NCBI GenBank assembly: GCA_963848965.1
Contig: CAWKFG010000001.1
Coordinates: 384,001 to 448,000 of the forward strand
Origin: an uncultured bacterium
GTDB lineage: Bacteria > Babelota > Babeliae > Babelales > Babelaceae
DNA: 64,000 nt
Reading direction: 5' to 3'
Positions 1,810-24,175 of this stretch are shown here, in pieces. Below the pieces are notes generated by a model, which was not told the origin of the DNA, searched no databases, and worked only from the letters and a program-made list of their open reading frames with translations. Position 1 is the first letter of the stretch. The number at the start of each line of letters is the position of its first letter. Position numbers and translations under genes: made by a program.

Positions 1810-2058
1810 TATTACCAGTTACTGTGAATGAAATTGCTAAACTTGGAGCTTTAGCAGCATATTGCAATAGTATTCCTTATAATCTCTTCTATCTAAATAT
1901 TGTTGTTGTTATAGCGGTAAGCATAATATTTTTCTAAAAAATAGTTTTAAGCAAACCAAGTATTGATTGAATGCTCTCAAGGCTAAAGTTGAATTCTATA
2001 ATTTCGTTCCTGAATGCGTCAACGATTGTGTTAAAAGTCAACAAGTTTAAAAATTATT

Positions 2059-3003
2059 TTAAGTAGTTTGCCATTGTTCTCCTTTTCGAACCATAACATT
2101 TAAAATACCAATAACCTTTCGCATAACAGCAATGAGAGCAACTTTAGCTTTTTTACCAACAGTGCGTAGCCGTTTATAAAAGCATTTAAGTGCAGGATTA
2201 AATCTGATAACTGCTAATGTAGCCATATAAAGGATATCACGGGTAGCTTGTCTACCACCGCTAATTGATGCAGTGCCTTTAGATCCACCACTTTGCTTAA
2301 TAAAAGGTGCTACACCTAGAATAGCGGCTATTTGCTTATTACCGACTTTGCCAAGCTCAGGCATTTCTGCAAGCAAAGAGCAGGCAGTGACTTTGCCGAT
2401 ACCAGGCATAGACTCAATAATATGGCATTTTTTATTAAGAGATTCATTGTCTTGGATCAGCTGTTCAATTTCTTGTTCAACTTCCTGTAACTGTCTTTCC
2501 ATAAAGGAGATATGAGCTTCAAGAAAATTTTTACAGTAAACTTGTTGAGGATGCTGCAATTTATTGGTTTCTTGAACAATGTTTCGGACAATGTTAGTCC
2601 TGAATTTGACGAGAGCACAGAGCTTTAGCTCGTCTTGAGAACGAATAATCTCATGATATTTAGGCCGTTTTTGAGAAGCAAAGAGAGCAATCATTTGAGC
2701 ATCAATTTTATCAGTTTTAGCCTTAATGCCTTCAGAGATGATGAAGGCTCTAATGCGTCTAGGCTGAACTTGCCAAGCATTATAATTATTAATGCTAAGT
2801 TCTTGCTTGAGAAGGAAATCGTAACCACCAGAAGACTCAAAAACGATCTGTACGACAGTATAAGCAGAAAGTACTTGAATGAGTTTATTGATTCCAGCTT
2901 GTGAGTTAGCAACTCTAAAGTCTTTAGCCACAGGATGTAAGTGAATATCTAAAAATTTTTTAGAGATATCGATGCCGACAAAAATATGTGATATAGTATT
3001 CAT
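2059..3003 (-). CDS. IS110 family DEDD recombinase/transposase
   Basis: GIDISK, FESSG, KTDKIDA, MPGIG, QSG motifs. Confidence 0.95.
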   Translation of the reverse strand: MNTISHIFVGIDISKKFLDIHLHPVAKDFRVANSQAGINKLIQVLSAYTVVQIVFESSGGYDFLLKQELSINNYNAWQVQPRRIRAFIISEGIKAKTDKIDAQMIALFASQKRPKYHEIIRSQDELKLCALVKFRTNIVRNIVQETNKLQHPQQVYCKNFLEAHISFMERQLQEVEQEIEQLIQDNESLNKKCHIIESMPGIGKVTACSLLAEMPELGKVGNKQIAAILGVAPFIKQSGGSKGTASISGGRQATRDILYMATLAVIRFNPALKCFYKRLRTVGKKAKVALIAVMRKVIGILNVMVRKGEQWQTT

Positions 3004-3165
3004 ATAGTGCCTCGGTTTTGTATACGGGATCCTTGTCCCACTCGATTGTTCGAGCTGTACTATATATGCTAGCAGGTCCTAAGTTGACACTCGGTTTTAA
3101 AAACCAGGCAGGGGAACAGGCTCCTGCTAGCTTTCCTAAACTTAACGTCTCAAATTTAGGAACAT
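3004..3165 (-). ncRNA. IS110 bridge RNA (predicted), copy 1
   Basis: 5' hairpin (3133-3162); target loop closed by GCTAGCAGG/CCTGCTAGC; donor loop; guides match the donor and target junctions. Confidence 0.85.
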
Positions 3166-3264
3166 AATTTCAATATACAAAGTAGGGGGCACCAACTTAA
3201 GTAAAGCTTATTTCCCATTTATATAGATTTTTAACTAAACATGTAATAGGTTAAGGAGCACGTA

Positions 3265-3591
3265 TTAGTTTTTCTTAAAAGTAGAGTGATTTGGTTGGTT
3301 TAATTGAGGTAAGCGTGCAAGAGGTTTATGTGATTGTTTTGCAATCCATAGATCATAGCGATATTGGAGATTAAGCCAGAATTCAGATGATGTACCAAAG
3401 ACGTCAGCAAAATCAAGCGCAATCGCTTCAGTGATTCTTCTTTTTTTGTTAACTATTTCACTTATTTTTGATTGAGTCCAAGTTCCTCCTAAATGCTTTG
3501 CTAATTGTTCTTGTGAAAGGTTAAGAGGCTTAAGAAATTCTTCTTGAAGAATTTCTCCTGGATGAGTAGGTATTCTTTTTGAGGGAATCAT
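3265..3591 (-). CDS. higA: HigA family antitoxin (XRE HTH)
   Basis: PTHPGEILQEEFL, RRIT..A, FWLNLQ. Confidence 0.92.
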   Translation of the reverse strand: MIPSKRIPTHPGEILQEEFLKPLNLSQEQLAKHLGGTWTQSKISEIVNKKRRITEAIALDFADVFGTSSEFWLNLQYRYDLWIAKQSHKPLARLPQLNQPNHSTFKKN

Positions 3592-3606
3592 CTTTATTTC
3601 CTTAAT

Positions 3607-3900
3607 TTAATGATAATCTATAATTTCAACATTTTCTGCTCCATCTGCGCTCCAGGAAAATATGATTCGATATTGATCATTAATTCGAATACTATAGTAT
3701 CCTTGTAATGTACCTTTAAGAGCCTCTAAACGGTTTGCTGGAGGCACTTTAAGATCATTAAGAGTATATGCAGCATCAATCATATCGAGTTTTCTACATG
3801 CAATAGAATGTAGTAAAGGATCAAGCTTTTTTCTTGCTTGTTTAGAATTGATACCATTAAAAATATCTTTTGTACCTTCATCAGCAAATGATCGAATCAT
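3607..3900 (-). CDS. higB: HigB/RelE-like toxin
   Basis: MIRSF, DLKVPPANRLEALKG, YSIRINDQYRI, EIIDYH; upstream of higA. Confidence 0.93.
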   Translation of the reverse strand: MIRSFADEGTKDIFNGINSKQARKKLDPLLHSIACRKLDMIDAAYTLNDLKVPPANRLEALKGTLQGYYSIRINDQYRIIFSWSADGAENVEIIDYH

Positions 3901-3981
3901 TACTCTGCCTCTGTAATTTTATATCATTATATAATATATCAATATATAAATCAAGTTTAGGATCAACAATAAGTTTTTTGG

Positions 3982-4015
3982 TTCTGAATGTGTCAACGAT
4001 TGTGTTAAAAGTCAA
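3982..4015 (-). mobile_element. orphan IS110 right-end/target junction
   Basis: TTCTGAATGTGTC-AA-CGATTGTGTTAAAAGTCAA matches 2008-2041 apart from two flank substitutions. Confidence 0.8.
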
Positions 4016-4028
4016 AGAATTTTACTTT

Positions 4029-4466
4029 TTATAAAAGAGTAAGTTCTGAATGTGTAATGCCTTGAGAAATATATCCAATAGCTTGCCTGTGACCAGACAT
4101 AAGCGAGGAAGGTAGTTGATCAGAGAAAAACCAATCAAGCCTTGGATGCTTGGTAATCTCTTTATTGATAGGATCTCCTTGCCAAGAAGTGATAACAAAA
4201 AAGAAGGCTATACAATCTTGGGGCAAGCGTCTTATATGCATAACATGAGCAAAGGTAATATGTTGAGGGTCAACTACAATATTGATCTCTTCTTCTAACT
4301 CTCGCCTTATCGCATTCTGAAGCGATTCATGTTCTTGAGGCTTACCTCCAGGTAGACAGTAAGTATTATCCATAAAGCCTGTACTTTTTCGTTCAAGTAA
4401 CAGAATTTGATTACTTTTACTATCAGGTTTCTTCTTTATAACGAGAGCATCAACATAGACAATCAT
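4029..4466 (-). CDS. NUDIX hydrolase
   Basis: Nudix box PGGKPQEHESLQNAIRRELEEE. Confidence 0.9.
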   Translation of the reverse strand: MIVYVDALVIKKKPDSKSNQILLLERKSTGFMDNTYCLPGGKPQEHESLQNAIRRELEEEINIVVDPQHITFAHVMHIRRLPQDCIAFFFVITSWQGDPINKEITKHPRLDWFFSDQLPSSLMSGHRQAIGYISQGITHSELTLL

Positions 4467-4554
4467 ATTTGATAAGCCTCATTTTTCTCTTAACCCACTG
4501 CAAGAAGCCTACTTCAATATTACTATAGAAAGGGAGTTTATAAAAGGAATGGTT

Positions 4555-4773
4555 ATGGTTAAAAAACAAAAACCATCAAAAAACGCTCCTATTGGGACTT
4601 TGGCCAAAGATCTTCCAAATGAGTTTCCGGGTATAGAGGGATTGTCAAGTCATAATATTTTAGAATAAGAGCTTTTTATAGGGCTTATTAAAGAGTGCCA
4701 CAGCCTGTGGCACAATTAGAAGAGCTCCCAGTTTTTAGGACTCCGTGAGGCCATAATGCATTATTATGGATAA
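4555..4773 (+). pseudogene. DUF1016/YhcG N-terminal relic
   Basis: LAKDLPNEFPGIEGLSSHNI.RIRAFYRAY*RVPQPVAQL..LPVFRTP*GHN with stops and a frameshift. Confidence 0.75.
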
Positions 4774-4896
4774 TATAGCGGGAACTAGAGCTTCTACAGC
4801 TGCTGACCCCTCATTCATTTAATCAGTACTTGTTGGCTTTCTGGTGTTTTCTCTCGTAAATACTGAGGATTTTTTTAACACCAAGATCTAGTAGAT

Positions 4897-5541
4897 ATGC
4901 CAATTTACAATTTTGAAACTGTGAAGTATTATCAAATAAAACGCTCTTTGTTGCTTTGGGAAAGGGATCATATGATTTTAACTGGTTTTAAAATTGCCAT
5001 TTTAATAACTAGTGGATTTCAGCAAATTGAGATGACAAGCCCACGAAAAGTTTTAAAAGATGCTGGTGCTATTGTTCACATTGTGTCTCCTGAAAAAGAT
5101 ACAGTTCAAGGTTGGGATTGTGATGTTCCAAAAGCATTAGAGAAATTTCCTGTAGATGTTAATTTGAATGACGCATCACCTGATAATTACGATGCTTTAT
5201 TGGTTCCAGGAGGTTATGGAAGTCCAGAAGAGCTACGGCTTAATAAGAAAGCTATAGCGTTTGTTAAAGCATTTGCACATAAGCCAATTGCAGCTATTTG
5301 TCATGGTCCTAGCTTACTTATTAATGCGCATCTGACAAAGAATAAAACGCTTACTTCCTATCCAGCAATTGAGCAAGATTTAATAAATGCTGGCGCTCAT
5401 TGGATTAATAAAGCTGTGGTCATCGATGATAATTTAATAACAAGCCGTTCACCAGAAGATATAGAAGTGTTTAATAAAGCTATTCTTGACGTATTTAGCA
5501 AAGTCAAAACGAGAAAAGTTAATAAGAGGCCTAAAGTGTAA
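4897..5541 (+). CDS. DJ-1/PfpI family type 1 glutamine amidotransferase-like protein (true start possibly later, at MILTG)
   Basis: GFQQIE, YDALLVPGG, AAICHGP, LITSRSP. Confidence 0.9.
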   Translation: MPIYNFETVKYYQIKRSLLLWERDHMILTGFKIAILITSGFQQIEMTSPRKVLKDAGAIVHIVSPEKDTVQGWDCDVPKALEKFPVDVNLNDASPDNYDALLVPGGYGSPEELRLNKKAIAFVKAFAHKPIAAICHGPSLLINAHLTKNKTLTSYPAIEQDLINAGAHWINKAVVIDDNLITSRSPEDIEVFNKAILDVFSKVKTRKVNKRPKV

Positions 5542-5652
5542 AGTGGATAAAGACTCTATGAAACGAGAGAACTTTGCTACTAACACAAAGTAGGAGCCAA
5601 TTGTAGGTTATTCTAGGACTGTAAAATTGATAGCGTTTCTCTAGTACAGATT

Positions 5653-6030
5653 TTAAGGAACAAAGAGTTTGGGCTCTCCTGTCTCTTCTAAATCGTCTCC
5701 TATATCTATATCGGCTAGACATATATGTTGTGTATCCTGACTTGCTGGAATTTTAGATTTTATAGCTAAAAGTTGTTGCTTTCCCAGAGCGATTTCTTTT
5801 GCATAATAAGATGCCACTTCCTCTAGTAAAGATTGAGGACGAGATAATGACTTGTACTTTACATCCGGTAAATCAAAATCCAAAGGCTTTTTAGGAAATG
5901 ATAGATTAATAGAAGCAATAATAGTGCTTTGGTCGGTTATTACTTTTGAAGATTCTAGGGCCTGTTCCATGCTATAGAGTTTTGCGTTTACTATTATAGC
6001 TAAGACTATAAAACCAATATTTTTATACAT
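5653..6030 (-). CDS. exported hypothetical protein (signal + ME; BC-box-like PQSLLEE)
   Basis: signal peptide ending LYS-MEQ. Confidence 0.55.
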   Translation of the reverse strand: MYKNIGFIVLAIIVNAKLYSMEQALESSKVITDQSTIIASINLSFPKKPLDFDLPDVKYKSLSRPQSLLEEVASYYAKEIALGKQQLLAIKSKIPASQDTQHICLADIDIGDDLEETGEPKLFVP

Positions 6031-6263
6031 ATTCTAGCACCTTTAAGAAGTATTAGATTAACTTTATAAATTATATACTAATAGAAACTCGTAATAGGTC
6101 AAGCTCAAAGTTTTTATAGGAGATGCCCGATTAATACGGCTTTATAGAAAAATGAAGCTTCAAACAATGGTTTATTGACAAAGTGTATTTTGTGGGTTAA
6201 TTTAGTGGAGGTACTTATGAATTCGTAAGATTTATAACATTAGTTAGACTGGGGATCCTTGCT

Positions 6264-8438
6264 ATGAATTATTTATGTATGATATATGCTTTAACTGCCC
6301 TCATAAGCTTTTCCTTAAATGGGATGCAGCAAGAAGTAAAAACACATCCAAATGAAACTTATAAGAAAAATTTGGAGTTACAGCAACAATTAATAAGAAG
6401 CTCTTTAAAGAGAGCCATTGATTCTTTTGCTCATAGCCAAGTAACTTCAGTACCTCAAGTATCTCTCTACACAACTCAACCAACACAATGGTTATTAGCT
6501 CCGATGCAGAAGGCTATAGTTGATGCTCAAATGGATATGCTAAAAAATATAGCTCCGGATAAAAACGAATTAACTGTTGTCTGTGCAGGAAATAGTAACT
6601 CTTGTACAAGTGCTATTTATGAAAAACTTGCAGTTAAAAAGCGTGTTATCAGCACAACAACAGAGAAAGCTTCTCCAGAATCAGTAGATATTATACTAGC
6701 ACCGTATACACTGTATAGTGAAATGGAATCTCTATTTAAAGCTTCCGAAGATCTTCTGTCTTCAGAAGATCCTTTACCCTTAGAAAGTCATCCGCTATTT
6801 AATTATTTTAGTAAGTTAAGCAAAGATGGGGTCTTTATTGTCACATTGCATAGCGGACCTAACGTGCAGGATTTTACTAACTTACTACTTAATAAGCATG
6901 AGCTTGATCTTACGCAGGTGCATCAAGCTGTACAGCCAAAGTTAAAAATATTTAATTCAATAGAGACATTTCTTCGTTGTTTAGACATATTTAAAAAATA
7001 TTATACACAAAAGACTGGTAAAGTTATTACCTGTGACTTATCATTCTCTTTGCCTCATATACCTCTCGATGTATTTTGTAACGAATATGTAAAACAATAT
7101 CCAGAACTTGGACATATGAATAATGAGCAGCTTGAGAAGTTTATACGTCTTCTTTCAGTTTTTGCTGTTGGCAATGATATCGTAGACCTTGCTATTACTT
7201 TAAAAATGTCGATAAAAGAATCAAGTGATCAGTCACAGCGTTCTTTCAAGCCTATACCAGGTATAATGAGTCTGCTTAAGAGTGAACCTATTGTGTCTCA
7301 AGGTAAGTCTAATGAGATTTCGCTAGGGCAACAGAATCTTGATAAACAGATTCAGAATTTAGAGGGTAGTGAACTATCTATGGTCCATATTAAGGGTGCA
7401 GACGGGGCAGCACAATTAGAAGCCATAAAGTCCGTTATTGGTCGTCCAAATCTTAACGTTGTTGATTTAGGAGGGGGACGTGGTGAAACTAATGCTCTTA
7501 TGAAAGCGCTTAAGGACTCTGGCTCAAACGTTCATCTATTAAATATTGAGCCGCATAAACCCTTTAAACCATTATATCTTGATGCACAAAATGCTGTTGG
7601 TATAACAGATGTAGAGGTATGGGAGCAAACTGCTCAACAACTATCAGCGCCTGAGGTAGTAAAACACTTTAAAGATAATAAGTAGATATACTCTATGCTT
7701 CGCATTCATTTTACTTTCTGTTAGGCGATTTATACAAAGCATCATTAGAGTATGCTCATGGATCTTCTACAACGCCATTAGCACAATCCATTATGGAAAT
7801 ATTTTGACATGCTTCATGAAAAGGGAATATTAGTCATTACTATGCAAAGTGGTGCTGGTGCCCGTCTATTTAGAAATGCGTTACTTGGCAATCACGGACT
7901 TAACCAACCAGCGCCAAATGTTGCTGACGAAACAGTTCCACTTTTAAGTAGTTTTGGTAATATGGCAACCTTATTACGTTCCTTTGAACTTTTTGCAGAT
8001 CATTACCAAAAAGAAACTGGTAAAGTAATTACTATTAAAATGCACTACTCTGTTGCTAATGTGCCACTTGGTAGCTATACCATAGGACAAAATCCAGAAA
8101 CCAAAGGTTATATTCTTCATGATGAGAGTAAGGAGCAAAATATGCTTGCATTAAGGATGCTTGATTTCTACGGTAACTGGCGTGAGTTACAAACACTTGC
8201 AAATGTAACTCCGGAAAAGGTTGCTGCTATGGATGTTGAAATGCAGAGGAAATTAGGGCTGGAAAACGCTACGCAGGAAGCAATTATAGCTAAACGAGAA
8301 AATGCTCGTAAAATGCAAGAAACATTCCTTCATATTTTGAGAGTATTTGCTCTAGCAAGAAAGAATATGCAGCACCCTAATATTACTCTAGAATTTAGTA
8401 TTGAACCACAACAAAAGAATACTGTTTTATCTAAGTAA
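6264..8438 (+). pseudogene. exported tandem class I SAM methyltransferase-like protein split by two frameshifts
   Basis: ORFs 6264-7685 and 7809-8438; VVDLGGGRG; intervening frame VDILYASHSFY; the two halves share HPL..YF/GV..VT..SG/TGKVIT motifs. Confidence 0.7.
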
Positions 8439-8611
8439 AATGGAAGTTCCTTAAAAGAATGAGTTAAACTGCCGCTCAAGATGAACCTAGAGAGTTTGAG
8501 AGAGCTGAATTTCTAGGTTCAAAAAAAAGTTATGCGGGTGTAAGCAGTAATTAGTTTTGATAGAAAAGTAAAGCTTGTTGTATATCTTTAAGGTCAACTT
8601 CAAACAAGATA

Positions 8612-8712
8612 CTTTTGTTCCTAAAATAGTGCTACTTGATAGCACCATAAGTCAAGCAGGGGGCGCCACCCTTCGCTAAAGCTTCGACTGGCAGGCCAGT
8701 TCTTTAAAGCAT
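8612..8712 (+). repeat. unoccupied IS110 target-type repeat with hairpin GTGCTA-N5-TAGCAC and a 30-bp palindromic insert
   Basis: TTTTGTTCC...GTC-AA-GCAGGGGGCGCCA resembles the joined IS flanks; partial copy at 23815-23857. Confidence 0.7.
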
Positions 8713-8874
8713 GATATAAATATTTGGTCATCAGAAACAAAATACTGCTCTATCTCATTACCTAAGACTTTCTTATAATTACTTATTAAATAATAATTTA
8801 TAATATATTAAATTATAGTTAATTATATAAATATGATATAAATACTTAAAAATATAATTAAAGGAATTATTCTT

Positions 8875-9637
8875 ATGAGACTATATATAGCTAGTATATT
8901 TTTAATATTAAGTGGTTCTTGCTTTGGAATGGCGTTAGAGTCTACGAAAGAGGAAAGTGGAAATGTAAATGCTCTTTTACGAGTTTTCCCAAGCGAGCTT
9001 CTTGAAGGACTAGAACCGTATAGAAGATATGCTCAATTTGCCGCTGTTCCTATCGATATTATACAATCAGCAAGTACACTTGAAGAGGCAATTGAAAGCT
9101 TAAAAAAACTTGAAAATATCTCGACCGGAGTACGCAAAATATTTTAGTGACCCAAGAATTATTGATATACTTATTAATACTTTAACTATTAAATTTAAAA
9201 AACGACAAAAAGACTTAATTGATAAACTTTATGAAAAAGAATTTAATCAAGAAGGGTTAGACAGTTGGCTGAATAAAATATTACCCATACAGCAGGAGCT
9301 GCTTGAGGCAGCTTCAGCAGGGAATTTAGAAAAGGTAAAGCAACTTCTTGCAAAAGATAAATATAATATTAATGCTTTAGATTTGGCTAACTATACTCCC
9401 CTTTTCAATGCCGTTGAGCAGGAGCATATTCCTATAGTTCAATATTTACTTGAACACGGAGCTGATATTCATGCTCAAGCTGTAACAGGTAATACGCCTT
9501 TACATCGTGCAATTATTAGAGATAATCCTCAACTAGTAAGATTATTACTTGAGTATGGTGCTGATCCTTGGATTGAGGATATGTTTGGTGCAACAGCCTT
9601 GGATAAAGCTCTACAAAAAAGAATCCAGAAATTTTGA
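8875..9637 (+). pseudogene. exported ankyrin repeat protein with F-box-like N-terminal motif, frameshifted near 9110
   Basis: two overlapping ORFs; TPLFNAV, TPLHRA; paralogous to 52089 and 56609. Confidence 0.8.
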
Positions 9638-9761
9638 AGCTTTTTAAAGAAGTTACCGTTGAATCTAAAGTGCACAAAAGGTCGAGGTACTACTCTTTTT
9701 ATTAATCTATATCCATTGTATTAAGAAGATAAAAATGGGATGTATCTAAAAAATTAAAATC

Positions 9762-9788
9762 AACTAGGAAGTTAAATACTTCCTAGTT
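9762..9788. terminator. hairpin between convergent genes
   Basis: AACTAGGAAGT-N5-ACTTCCTAGTT. Confidence 0.6.
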
Positions 9789-9834
9789 CTTTCACGTTAA
9801 ATGTGGTTAATGCAATGTAACCTTTAATTCTTTC

Positions 9835-10087
9835 CTAATTATTGGTCACACGGCTAAGAGTTATTGAGGTTATAGAATAATTGTTTGGATCAAGTAATCG
9901 CTTAAGAGCGCTTCTACTAGTACCTAGATGCTTAGCCATCTCTGTTTGGCTTATACGATTTACCATCTCTTGTTGTAGTTCATAGGTTATTATTTGCTTT
10001 ATAGCTGCAGCTTCAGCTTTTTCTAGGATACCTTCTTTTTTAAGAAAGAGTATCGAAATCGGATTCTATATGCTTATTATTTTCCAT
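9835..10087 (-). pseudogene. XRE/HTH antitoxin-like, frameshifted
   Basis: MENNKHIESDFD..FLKKEGILEKAEAAAIKQII...SQTEMAKHLGTSRSALKRLLDP. Confidence 0.7.
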
Positions 10088-10117
10088 TGCTCTCTCTTAT
10101 CTAAATGTATAGGGAAG

Positions 10118-10435
10118 TTAGCGGTTATTCTTGGTGGTCAAGGGTATAACTTCTCCATCTTTTTGAGCTTGTAAGGTATAACCTAAGCCATTAAATATTT
10201 TAATAAGACTAGCAGCGCTTATTCTTCTATTTCCAGAACGAATTCCTTGAATGATAGTAGGAGATACTCCAGCTTCTTCAGCTAACCTTCTTACTGTAAT
10301 TCCATCTCTATGCATAGCCGCTAAGATGAGCTCTGATATTAAGAGATTTTCGTAATCTCGTTCAAATTCCTTTAACTCGCGTGGGCTTAATTTTTCAATA
10401 AGCTCATCGTAGGTAGATTTCATTTTTTTAGTCAT
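10118..10435 (-). CDS. XRE family HTH protein (antitoxin-like)
   Basis: TVRRLAEEAGVSPTIIQGIRSG. Confidence 0.8.
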   Translation of the reverse strand: MTKKMKSTYDELIEKLSPRELKEFERDYENLLISELILAAMHRDGITVRRLAEEAGVSPTIIQGIRSGNRRISAASLIKIFNGLGYTLQAQKDGEVIPLTTKNNR

Positions 10436-10459
10436 TGTAATATCCTTTATTATATCTTT

Positions 10460-10831
10460 TTACATAATCATCGGAATATTAAAAATAGGCAGGTCATATA
10501 ATTGTCGCACAGCCTGTGCGAATTTTTCATAAGCTAGATAAAACGCCTGCATTCTAAACATATTGGCTCTAGAGAACCCTGCAACCCCAGGGAATTCAGC
10601 TTGTAAATCCTTGCCTAGACTTTCTATAACACTTTCTCCCCAACTGTTTTTTGCCTGTTTTTCAGTTAATATCTTTCCAATATACCAATAGAGCTTAAGT
10701 AACTCTTTGTTTGCAGAAAGAATTGCTTTGATTTGAGCTTCTCTTACTTGCTTTTTAAGATCAGCTAATACTTCAGCATATTCTCTTAACTCTATGCCCT
10801 TTGTGTCTTTTAGATTGACTTTTTTTATCAT
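10460..10831 (-). pseudogene. DUF1016/YhcG N-terminal fragment
   Basis: ANKELLKLYWYIG, WG..VIE.L..DLQ.EFPG..GFS..N; ends at FNIP. Confidence 0.85.
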
Positions 10832-10834
10832 GGG

Positions 10835-11038
10835 CTAGCCTTTATTCGTTTGTGTCGCGGCATGGATAAGTTTTGCTAGAGTTTTAATTGTAGGATTCGA
10901 TTTATCAGACATAGCAAGGTAGATAGTTTGCCTATGTAGTCCAGTTTGTTTTGATAATAATGTTTTGTTTTTAGACTTTATGTAGTTACTTAATATATCT
11001 ATTACTTCTCTTGGATTGTTATTTTCTAGCGCATTCAA
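10835..11038 (-). CDS. addiction-module antidote-like HTH protein (possibly truncated)
   Basis: LSKQTGLHRQTIY.AMS.KSNPTIKTL; palindrome TGTATATT-AA-AATATACA at 11112-11129 upstream. Confidence 0.7.
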   Translation of the reverse strand: MNALENNNPREVIDILSNYIKSKNKTLLSKQTGLHRQTIYLAMSDKSNPTIKTLAKLIHAATQTNKG

Positions 11039-11543
11039 GATTGCAAGCCGTAATCTGATTTTTCTTTTCTTTCCATAAGCTTCTCCGATTCATTAAAAGG
11101 TACATAAATAGTGTATATTAAAATATACAAAGGTGCAAGCACTTTATTTAGAGAAGACCTCAATGGCTTATTTGTAAGACCCGTACTACTCAGATCATGA
11201 GCTAAAACTAGAGTTTAGTTAGTTTTAGTGATTTAAACTTTGTTATATGTTTGCGTAGTGTGTTAAAAGGGCTTTGGTTTAAGGGTAACTTTATTTTATT
11301 TAGATCAGCTATGAGGCGATACAAGCCCCCTTTATTAGAATGTGCAAACATAGTTCTCAGTTCCCATATGGTTACTACCTCAAGCGCTTATTTTAAACCA
11401 TATTAAGATGTGCTTTGGATTAAGATCAAGGTTGTTTAAGGAAGTTTTCTAGCCGGTGAAAAAGCGTAAGCTTTTGTAAATCTCAGATTTCTTTGTTAAA
11501 GTTTAGTTGAAAGCTGTTCGACAAGTTTACAAAGGAGTAAGCT

Positions 11544-12066
11544 ATGTATAGAAGTTTTTGTTCTACTCTAATGAGTATTGCATTATTTTTCTCTCTAGTA
11601 AATGCGCATGATGTGGAGCAAAGTACCTGCCATCATGACGAAGGAAACATCTTTATTATTCTTAATAAACCGTTGCACCGCTATCTTCAAGCACACTACA
11701 GCCATAAGTATGAAACAGCTAAAGAATTGTTAAAGCATATCCATACACTAGAGCTTATTATTCAAGAAAATACCTGCTTTTATTCTTTGTTTATTAAAGA
11801 TCTCTCTTCAAAATCTAAGATTATTATAAAAGGCAGAGAGCGATTGTTAGAATCTATTATCGGCCAAGGCATGATTGATAATACTATTATTAAGCTCTTC
11901 TTTTGTATATAAAGAGCGGTCATTGCAGTGTCACTTTAATAAACAGAAAAGAGTCGGTATTATTAAGCTTGATGAAAGGCAAGCTCAGAAGTTCTGTTAT
12001 CGTCTGTTAGCTCTTGCAGAAAGAACGGATAATCAACTTTATAAAAAGCTTTATCCTAACTTATAA
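11544..12066 (+). pseudogene. exported hypothetical protein, probably frameshifted
   Basis: signal peptide; overlapping ORFs 11544-11912 and 11875-12066. Confidence 0.45.
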
Positions 12067-12304
12067 GAGTATACATGTTTGTAAGCTAGTTTGCAGTTAA
12101 GTAGAGTCTCTGGATAATAAACCTGAGTTTAGAGTTGCTGTAGTGACTATATGTATTTAAAGTTATATAATGTTAGTATGTTGTGCACTAGAAAGTGCTC
12201 TTTCTGGCTTTTAGATTATATCTTTACGCATTGATGTGAGTGCGTTATAGTGAAAAGTTAAGCTCTGTAAATCAGGTAAATCCCAAATGATACGGAAGTT
12301 TTCG

Positions 12305-12540
12305 TTATAATTCATTATTATTTTCAGAAGAATTTTTTGCTGAATATAGATCTTTATATTTGTGTTTAGAAAGAAGCTCTATCATTTCTGTATAATCTTC
12401 ATTTAAAGCAATATCAAGAGGATTGAATTGCCATTTGTTGGTTCGAATAGTACCATCTGCACCATGCTCAAGTAGGAGCTGTGCTATTTTTATAGTGTTT
12501 TTTTCTGTGGCTAAATGCAAAGGAGTAACACCATAACTTC
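12305..12540 (-). pseudogene. ankyrin repeat 3' fragment
   Basis: GVTPLHLA..IAQLLLEHGAD..NPLDIA. Confidence 0.7.
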
Positions 12541-12708
12541 TTTAGGAATCTCCAGCAAAAAAAAGAAGCTACTCTTTAATGTTTCTCTAAAAATTATTAA
12601 GTAAATAAAATATTGATTGAATGCTATCAAGGCTAAAATTTAGCTCTATAATTTTGTTCCTGAATGCGTCAACGATTGTGTTAAAAGTCAACAAGTTTAA
12701 AAATTATT

Positions 12709-13653
12709 TTAAGTAGTTTGCCATTGTTCTCCTTTTCGAACCATAACATTTAAAATACCAATAACCTTTCGCATAACAGCAATGAGAGCAACTTTAGCTT
12801 TTTTACCAACAGTGCGTAGCCGTTTATAAAAGCATTTAAGTGCAGGATTAAATCTGATAACTGCTAATGTAGCCATATAAAGGATATCACGGGTAGCTTG
12901 TCTACCACCGCTAATTGATGCAGTGCCTTTAGATCCACCACTTTGCTTAATAAAAGGTGCTACACCTAGAATAGCGGCTATTTGCTTATTACCGACTTTG
13001 CCAAGCTCAGGCATTTCTGCAAGCAAAGAGCAGGCAGTGACTTTGCCGATACCAGGCATAGACTCAATAATATGGCATTTTTTATTAAGAGATTCATTGT
13101 CTTGGATCAGCTGTTCAATTTCTTGTTCAACTTCCTGTAACTGTCTTTCCATAAAGGAGATATGAGCTTCAAGAAAATTTTTACAGTAAACTTGTTGAGG
13201 ATGCTGCAATTTATTGGTTTCTTGAACAATGTTTCGGACAATGTTAGTCCTGAATTTGACGAGAGCACAGAGCTTTAGCTCGTCTTGAGAACGAATAATC
13301 TCATGATATTTAGGCCGTTTTTGAGAAGCAAAGAGAGCAATCATTTGAGCATCAATTTTATCAGTTTTAGCCTTAATGCCTTCAGAGATGATGAAGGCTC
13401 TAATGCGTCTAGGCTGAACTTGCCAAGCATTATAATTATTAATGCTAAGTTCTTGCTTGAGAAGGAAATCGTAACCACCAGAAGACTCAAAAACGATCTG
13501 TACGACAGTATAAGCAGAAAGTACTTGAATGAGTTTATTGATTCCAGCTTGTGAGTTAGCAACTCTAAAGTCTTTAGCCACAGGATGTAAGTGAATATCT
13601 AAAAATTTTTTAGAGATATCGATGCCGACAAAAATATGTGATATAGTATTCAT
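12709..13653 (-). CDS. IS110 family DEDD recombinase/transposase
   Basis: protein identical to 2059-3003. Confidence 0.95.
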   Translation of the reverse strand: MNTISHIFVGIDISKKFLDIHLHPVAKDFRVANSQAGINKLIQVLSAYTVVQIVFESSGGYDFLLKQELSINNYNAWQVQPRRIRAFIISEGIKAKTDKIDAQMIALFASQKRPKYHEIIRSQDELKLCALVKFRTNIVRNIVQETNKLQHPQQVYCKNFLEAHISFMERQLQEVEQEIEQLIQDNESLNKKCHIIESMPGIGKVTACSLLAEMPELGKVGNKQIAAILGVAPFIKQSGGSKGTASISGGRQATRDILYMATLAVIRFNPALKCFYKRLRTVGKKAKVALIAVMRKVIGILNVMVRKGEQWQTT

Positions 13654-13815
13654 ATAGTGCCTCGGTTTTGTATACGGGATCCTTGTCCCACTCGATTGTT
13701 CGAGCTGTACTATATATGCTAGCAGGTCCTAAGTTGACACTCGGTTTTAAAAACCAGGCAGGGGAACAGGCTCCTGCTAGCTTTCCTAAACTTAACGTCT
13801 CAAATTTAGGAACAT
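13654..13815 (-). ncRNA. IS110 bridge RNA (predicted), copy 2
   Basis: same as 3004-3165. Confidence 0.85.
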
Positions 13816-13940
13816 AATTTCAATATACAAAGTAGGGGGTGCCACGTTCTTAAAGTGCTTGTTTTGCCTATTCGTAAGTTTTTTTTGTTAAATCGTAAAA
13901 CATAACGCTGCCGTAAAAGAAGTCCAACTACTCTTAGTTT

Positions 13941-23814: not shown

Positions 23815-23857
23815 TTTTGTTCAGAAAATAGTGCTACTTCATAGCACCATGCGTCCA
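23815..23857 (+). repeat. partial IS110 target-type repeat
   Basis: TTTTGTTCAGAAAATAGTGCTACTTCATAGCACCATGCGTC vs 8613-8653 and the IS flank ATGCGTC. Confidence 0.7.
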
Positions 23858-24175
23858 AGAAGATTTAAATTTATTCTAAGCAGATAGCCATTGTTCATCT
23901 TTGCGAATCATAACATTTAAAACACTAGGATGTGCTAATACTAAGCTAATCAATAATATTAACGCCAATTCGAGCTAAGGACTAGATAAAAAAGGCCCAC
24001 TACAGTATTCTTTACTTTAGATGAAGATTGATGTGTCTTAATAGGCTAGTTTTCGCGCTTACTGGGGTTTTATGAAACGAGAGAACTTTGCTATTAATAC
24101 AAAATGGGAACCAATTTTTTTGCTAATTTAACGTAATTATTTTGGGTTGGGTCAATATAACCAAAGAGGGAACGG

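Follow-up and report, generated by a model that had tools for sequence, protein, structure and literature searches.

An IS110-group insertion sequence with a predicted bridge RNA and a TT donor core in the genome of an uncultured member of the Babelaceae

Introduction

How is the insertion site of an IS110-group element selected, and can the instruction be read from the DNA of the element itself? The question is raised by a recombinase gene and its upstream leader in a stretch of 64,000 nucleotides (the window) from an uncultured bacterium of the family Babelaceae, whose genome comprises 1.73 Mb on 5 contigs with a G+C content of 37% and a completeness of 88.7%. The original prediction for this locus described an IS110 bridge RNA with four guides, a TT core and a promoter formed at the joined element ends. 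The present analysis indicates that the locus is, with high probability, an insertion sequence of the IS110 group whose transposition proceeds by recombination guided by a bridge RNA. The direct basis for this reading comprises the element limits, the copies, the RNA structure, the complementarity of guides and DNA together with its co-variation, and the catalytic residues.

Materials and methods

Relatives of the recombinase were collected from 41 genomes of the family, 6 of which had a match (the present genome included), from species-representative genomes (21 loci, best-segment identity 33-44%) and from metagenome contigs (the best 80 loci). The seed set for the RNA comparison comprised 21 of the 92 loci with a located start codon, selected by an identity of 43% or more and an upstream stretch of no less than 150 nt; it omits L039, L045 and L049, which have odd or truncated left ends, and the minus-strand loci L033 and L034 were examined separately. 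For the survey of cores, the covariance model was run over 100 loci and yielded 80 matches. Left junctions of relatives were located by a motif at the expected distance. The probability of chance matches was estimated with 20,000 dinucleotide shuffles of the 162-nt leader.

Results and discussion

The recombinase and the limits of the element

The element and its gene are located as follows.

2021..3181, minus strand: IS110-group element, copy 1; 1159 bp plus the core TT at both junctions
2059..3003, minus strand: recombinase gene (314 aa) with a DEDD RuvC-like domain, a coiled coil and a Tnp domain

The recombinase matched the Pfam families PF01548 (DEDD_Tnp_IS110, E 3.1e-19) and PF02371 (Transposase_20, E 2.5e-19). 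Over residues 8-308 it also matched the solved recombinases of IS621 (E 4.3e-31; 111.9 bits with phmmer) and ISCro4 (E 3e-34). Residues D12, E56, D98 and D101 align to D11, E60, D102 and D105 of IS621 (PDB chain offset +2), and S238-G239 aligns to S241-G242; residue names and numbering follow passages of the IS621 structure paper (PMC11208158). In an alignment with 29 homologues (47-61% identity), D12, E56, D98 and S238 were invariant and D101 nearly so. The features by which the IS110 group is recognized, a DEDD domain with four acidic residues and a Tnp domain with a catalytic serine, are thus both present, and the recombinase shares its five catalytic residues and its DEDD and Tnp(Ser) domains with IS621 of Escherichia coli, itself an IS110-group element (PMC11208160; PMC11208158; PDB 8wt6). 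The reading frame, the catalytic residues and the RNA of the element are all intact.

The left end of copy 1 is 176 nt long (3179-3004) and the right end 36 nt (2058-2023). On inspection the termini were not inverted repeats of each other, and the short core alone was common to both junctions; IS621 likewise has no terminal inverted repeats and shares only a core dinucleotide. The recombinase family and the RNA-guided choice of sites are also common to the IS1111 group with its seekRNA elements. In passages of PMC11208160, IS1111 elements are described with the guide RNA in a long right end and with long subterminal inverted repeats, in contrast to the 36-nt right end and the RNA in the 176-nt left end found here.

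The genome contains three full copies, identical throughout the 1159 bp inside the element limits and surrounded by different flanks. The second copy lies within the window, the third on a different contig (C4) with flanks that differ from those of the other two.

12671..13831, minus strand: copy 2, in the same orientation as copy 1; junctions CCCCTAC-TT and TT-GACGC
Contig C4, about 450985-452144: copy 3; junctions TCCCCTG-CT-TGTATA and ACAATCG-TT-TACATG
3990..4015, minus strand: relic of a right end; the last 21 nt of the right end, then TT, then GACAC

Contigs from the public runs X1-X3 carry an element of 93% identity with flanks of the copy-3 type, and the match ends exactly at 2021 and 3180. 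The limits of the element are therefore empirical, being given by the block shared by three copies and by the end of similarity in these runs.

Could the three copies be fossils, or products of segmental duplication or gene conversion of an element that no longer transposes? Copies 1 and 2 do reside in paralogous repeats; their left flanks resemble each other over approximately 35 nt and their right flanks over 97 nt (83.5%). Moreover, the assembled contigs of four public runs contain no circle junction, no RNA run was listed among those with the element, and broken copies occur among the relatives, namely L034, with a frameshift, and L032, with a stop inside the frame. Yet 1159 bp are identical in all three copies, against a likeness of 83.5% where copies 1 and 2 meet their surroundings, copy 3 is placed on a separate contig between different flanks, and frame, catalytic residues and RNA are intact. 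We consider an element that no longer transposes, with copies of such origin, decidedly unlikely; the three identical copies together with the intact catalytic set argue for recent activity of the element.

Several further observations concern the neighbourhood of the copies. A higB-higA toxin-antitoxin pair (3265-3900, minus strand) is located between the relic at 4015-3990 and copy 1. A second relic, at about 23856-23922 (minus strand), derives from a related IS110 element, of which it retains the C-terminal end and the right end; it is 81-82% alike over 67-70 nt and is followed by TT-GGACGCATGG. Contig C3 (9474 nt) repeats, at 99.5% identity, the 9.5-kb segment that separates copies 1 and 2 (window 3180-12639), and one of its ends terminates exactly at the left boundary of the IS110 element. 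Either strain variation within the assembly or a true duplication bordered by the IS110 element could account for this contig.

Structure of the predicted bridge RNA

The left end upstream of the recombinase gene encodes a predicted RNA with three stem-loops.

3133..3162, minus strand: 5' stem-loop of the bridge RNA, from the fold; similar hairpins occur in relatives
3068..3131, minus strand: target-binding stem-loop, with the outer stem GCUAGCAGG/CCUGCUAGC
3115-3106 and 3090-3084, minus strand: left guide and right guide (GUGUCAA) of the target loop
3010..3055, minus strand: donor-binding stem-loop, with the left guide ACAAUCG (3049-3043) and the right guide UAUACAAA (3024-3017)
3040-3036/3029-3025, minus strand: inner stem of the donor loop

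The leaders of the 21 relatives could be aligned well with that of this element, and 17 of the 22 consensus pairs displayed compensatory changes, among them eight of the ten pairs of the target outer stem, all four of the donor outer stem and four of the five of the donor inner stem. The proportion of paired cells was 95.2%, compared with 83.5% in shuffles (0 of 500 as high) and at most 48% in slid controls. A covariance model built from the 21 relatives, with this element left out, assigned the element 106.9 bits (E 2.5e-23). In the genome the model obtained exactly three matches, one per copy, so that the bridge RNA is present in each of them; within the element it matched only the left end. 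Rfam 15, searched at E up to 1, returned two chance-level hits and no bridge-RNA family, and hence a search of that library leaves the RNA unnamed.

Folding of the leader placed a 5' hairpin (3162-3133) ahead of the two loops. For the donor loop, the minimum-energy fold of the single sequence did not leave ACAAUCG in an open loop but closed it within a small hairpin, and in the minimum-energy fold of the full left end the right donor arm of the element (see below) paired with its own guide. The minimum-energy fold with ACAAUCG closed was set aside in favour of the structure backed by co-variation, and it is on this comparative structure that the probable open donor loop around ACAAUCG is based. 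The donor stem had also been thought to overlap the start codon. Instead, its 3' strand (3014-3010) covers the GAGG ribosome-binding site (3013-3010), and a gap of 6 nt separates the end of the stem from the ATG (3003-3001).

The order of 5' hairpin, target loop and donor loop corresponds to the bridge-RNA layout in passages of PMC11208160, and IS621, according to the same passages, similarly encodes these three parts in a long left end. An unusual arrangement was observed in L039 (1-1639) and L045 (380-1900), two metagenome relatives with 52-56% protein identity. In both, a weak single-loop RNA without a donor loop precedes the gene, and downstream of the gene lie a degenerate joint of two ends, a complete RNA with both loops and approximately 25 codons of a second gene start. 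This layout may be the remnant of a tandem dimer, or a hint of how the guide RNA could be transferred to an IS1111-like right end.

Guides and junctions

The DNA that the four guides would read is distributed over the two junctions of copy 1.

3182..3188, minus strand: left target flank, CCCCTAC; six of seven positions pair with the guide at 3114-3108, plus one G:T wobble
3180..3181, minus strand: core TT of the left junction
3179-3174, minus strand: right donor arm, TGTATA; TT plus TGTATA is the exact complement of UAUACAAA (3024-3017)
2021..2029, minus strand: left donor arm ACAATCG and core TT; the arm is an exact copy of the guide at 3049-3043
2014..2020, minus strand: right target flank, GACGC...; pairs with GUGUC, with a single U:G wobble

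The minus-strand junctions are CCCCTAC-TT-TGTATA and ACAATCG-TT-GACGC, as originally predicted, and the four guides were found where they had been placed (ACAAUCG at 3049-3043, UAUACAAA at 3024-3017, CCCCUGC at 3114-3108 and GUGUCAA at 3090-3084). The donor loop is complementary to both element ends through an exact 7-mer and an exact 8-mer. Toward the target, copies 1 and 2 match at six of seven positions plus one wobble on each side, with a guide G opposite a bottom-strand T and a guide U opposite a top-strand G, whereas the right target flank of the relic (GACAC) matches the right target guide exactly (7/7). The predicted donor ACAATCG-TT-TGTATA and the copy-1 target CCCCTAC-TT-GACGC consequently hold, with exact donor guides and one wobble in each target guide, and are backed by the comparative evidence below. 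Similar to IS621, for which passages of PMC11208160 describe the same arrangement, the left guides read the bottom strand, and the right guides, whose pairings include the core, read the top strand. Compared with the values in that source, the right target guide is longer (7 nt including the core, against 4 nt in IS621), and the right donor guide is contiguous here, whereas a passage of the paper reports that IS621 pairs 9 RNA bases with 7 DNA bases.

These matches would be coincidental if the leader were a mere 5' untranslated regulatory region and the protein alone selected the site. The sequestration of the ribosome-binding site by the donor stem would make translational control by such a leader plausible. 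Against coincidence stand the chance estimates. In the 20,000 shuffles, the 7-mer of the left donor arm was matched in 58, the 8-mer of core and right donor arm in 88, and with at most one wobble the left target flank in 1824 and core plus right target flank in 501. Neither both donor guides jointly nor all four guides jointly were matched in a single shuffle. Among the relatives, the 7-mer of the left donor guide was found exactly after the gene in all 19 with more than 150 nt downstream, involving eight different 7-mers, compared with 4 of 262 mismatched pairings of guide and element. The mean match of the right target flank was 3.58 of 6 positions against 2.32 in mismatched pairings, and that of the left target flank 5.57 of 7 against 3.38, control values that are inflated since many relatives share a similar target; in either case none of 5000 permutations reached the observed mean. 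The core, too, co-varies with the guides (see below). A purely regulatory role of the leader is scarcely credible in view of these results. Pfam domains, catalytic residues, the score of the covariance model and the co-variation of guides and ends concur in identifying an IS110 element with a bridge RNA, as originally proposed.

A predicted promoter split between the element ends

A promoter formed at the circle junction had been proposed as TTGACT-17-TATATT, and at the sequence level this holds.

2036..2041, minus strand: -35 half, TTGACT, in the 36-nt right end
3177-3172, minus strand: -10 half, TATATT, overlapping the right donor arm; arm and -10 region together span 3172..3179

Across the joined ends the spacer amounts to 17 nt, made up of 15 nt down to 2021 and the T and G at 3179-3178. 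The motif TTGAC is located 6 nt from the left donor arm, a distance conserved in 16 of the 21 elements. The left end of the integrated copy contained no consensus-like promoter. A promoter split across joined ends is also described for IS621 in passages of PMC11208160.

From IS621 we infer how the parts may cooperate. If the ends were joined in a circle or in a tandem, TTGACT and TATATT would form a sigma-70 promoter at the predicted joint ...ACAATCG-TT-TGTATATT.... [quoted passage not shown] The target loop, through (U)CCCCUGC and GUGUCAA, would pair with a site CCCCTRC-(C/T)T-GACRC, and the DEDD/Ser recombinase of 314 aa would exchange strands at the core dinucleotide. By the same analogy the element may be active at present, and it may be reprogrammable.

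The TT core and the register of the left target guide

The core differs from that of IS621, which is CT, and the proteins are distant. The left side differs as well, given that the left core guides mismatch the core. Here CC or CU forms the end of the left target guide, AG follows the left donor guide, and at most one core base is paired on this side. The right guides, on the other hand, end in AA and read TT.

In the core survey, 66 of the 80 matches combined a CT behind the left donor arm with right guides that both carry AG at their core end. Nine more had AG in both guides and an end that was not located, two had a gap in one guide and a CT end, and two aligned poorly. The remaining one, L034, carries AA in both guides and a TT end, the same as the present element; it is the frameshifted copy and belongs to a different genus of the same family. 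The right end was CT in 68 of 69 relatives with a located right end, all from one clade. Hence, among the elements surveyed, TT with AA in the right guides is confined to the present element and the broken L034. CT-core IS110 elements (L031, L040, L046, L052 and others), whose proteins are 46-61% identical to the present recombinase, have a near-identical RNA scaffold, the donor arm ACAATCG ... TGTAT and the same split promoter, and differ in having CT with AG in both right guides instead of TT with AA. Two guides and the DNA have changed in a matching way, which identifies the TT core, at the level of sequence comparison, as a real and rare variant. The present element and L034 probably derive from one ancestor, so that the co-variation of TT and AA may represent a single evolutionary event.

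TT is found in the donor and as the target core of copies 1 and 2; copy 3, in contrast, has CT at its left junction. According to passages of PMC11208158 the top strand of IS621 is cut 3' of the core, whereby the left junction keeps the target core and the right junction the donor core. By analogy, copy 3 has the appearance of an insertion in which the donor brought TT and the target CT, and the same pattern is seen in L034 (GCCCTTT-CT-TGTATA and ACAATCG-TT) and in the runs X1-X3. The alternative of an element end lacking one T was dropped for the simpler reading of an intact end with a CT target core, which is preferred on account of the position-aligned guides and the cleavage position of IS621.

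The register of the left target guide is ambiguous by one base. In 17 of 21 family elements one spacer base separates the left core guide from the inner stem; the remaining four, copy 1 among them, fit best without it. The register first proposed (CCCCUGC+CU) lies one base off this usual family register and matches 7 of 9 positions in copies 1 and 2. The usual register (UCCCCUG+CC) fits copy 3 at 8 of 9. It may be that the element uses the usual register with its one spacer base and prefers CT as target core, that TT is the core of the donor only, and that copies 1 and 2 inserted off register, mainly under the direction of the right target guide. The prevalence of the spacer among the family members, the good fit of copy 3, the junctions of L034 and of the runs X1-X3, which are of the same type, and the cut position of IS621, which in the cited passages puts the target core on the left and the donor core on the right, all point in this direction. 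On the opposite side, the right target guide itself ends in AA and reads TT. Copies 1 and 2, in separate repeat copies, have TT on both sides and match the right guide at six of seven positions plus one wobble, and the TT-GACAC of the relic matches that guide exactly. In addition, one base may have been lost at the left junction of copy 3. We regard this target rule, with CT as the preferred target core, as a real possibility, albeit a doubtful one, and retain TT as a core of both donor and target for copies 1 and 2.

The fit of copies 1 and 2 (7 of 9 on the left, with a strong match to the right guide) and the exact match of the relic on the right indicate that the guides tolerate a weak half. 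Such a tolerance would recall the 'half-match' recombination reported in a 2026 preprint (10.64898/2026.08.31.748434).

The target is a gene-bounding repeat

All insertions are located at one fixed position of a repeat of approximately 115 nt, which bounds genes in two regions rich in mobile and defence genes. A search with nhmmer yielded 12 hits at E < 0.01. Ten of them lie on the same strand within one 18-kb stretch of contig C4 (435201-453625) and represent nine repeat copies, two of the hits being halves split by copy 3. Between the repeats lie genes, singly or in pairs and on either strand, among them fragments of YhcG nucleases, DUF4143 ATPases, AbiEi/AbiEii, an ankyrin protein, Fic, a histidine phosphatase and HigBA. 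A group II intron reverse transcriptase/maturase gene was observed to split yhcG (DUF1016) at L119 9431-12609, corresponding to C4 443931-447109.

Most unoccupied repeat copies have TA at the core position. The one closest to the guides lies between copies 1 and 2.

8558..8687, minus strand: unoccupied repeat copy, CCCCTGC-TT-GACTT

Five sites in the genome have at most 2 mismatches from the guide-ideal 14-mer, and the copy at 8558-8687 is the only one of them recognized within a repeat copy.

The layout of the repeats resembles a cassette array, and a short open frame (MFRN...) can be read in the right half of the repeat. An interpretation of the repeat as an attC site of an integron was rejected for want of a single-strand fold and of a nearby integrase. 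The z-scores of the repeat fold (0.50, 0.07, 1.25 and -0.08) are about 0 and indicate no structure. The genome encodes only two tyrosine recombinases, on contig C1 at 311 kb and 501 kb, and no integron-type integrase was found nearby; the two genes are 75-100 kb distant from the nearest repeat copies of C1 (386-397 kb) and do not share a contig with the C4 array. A promoter-like sequence, TTGACG-18-TAGAAT (2022-1993, minus strand), begins at the core TT and points outward into the flank; it is part of the target repeat and not made by the insertion.

Insertion at a fixed position of a repeated intergenic sequence is also described for IS110 elements of the ISPpu10 type in passages of PMC11208160 and of a preprint (10.64898/2026.03.19.712850). 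The target of ISPpu10-type members is a palindromic REP element, in contrast to the unstructured direct repeat of approximately 115 nt used here.

Implications

The element is a further member of the IS110 elements with a bridge RNA, a kind that is well understood, and its TT variant is rarer than the usual CT. Its bridge RNA could be read correctly from the raw sequence, and the reading can be confirmed by comparative data alone. The system is compact, with a recombinase of 314 aa, a natural non-CT (TT) core and a right target guide of 7 nt. For IS621, passages of PMC11208160 report that lengthening the right target guide to 7 bp improved the performance of engineered non-CT cores. The combination of a natural TT core and a 7-nt right target guide could hence widen the range of addressable sites.

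A more speculative and rather unlikely reading is that of a natural 'mixed-core' system, which would land at CT and TT versions of one repeat position because the right guides (AA) read the donor TT and the left target guide reads C at the first core position. If so, pairs of direct copies such as copies 1 and 2, at a distance of 9.5 kb, could bring about the excision, duplication or shuffling of gene blocks. These blocks would be the repeat-bounded genes in the defence, toxin-antitoxin and mobile-element islands of a protist-associated bacterium, and contig C3 might be a product of such bridge recombination.

The preferred reading, an IS110-group element moving by bridge-RNA-guided recombination, presents an RNA-guided element that would home to a gene-bounding repeat in a small, host-dependent genome, a host unlike the E. 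coli of IS621. Its three copies and the one relic at 3990-4015 provide a small natural data set on the tolerance of guides to mismatches and to slippage of the register.
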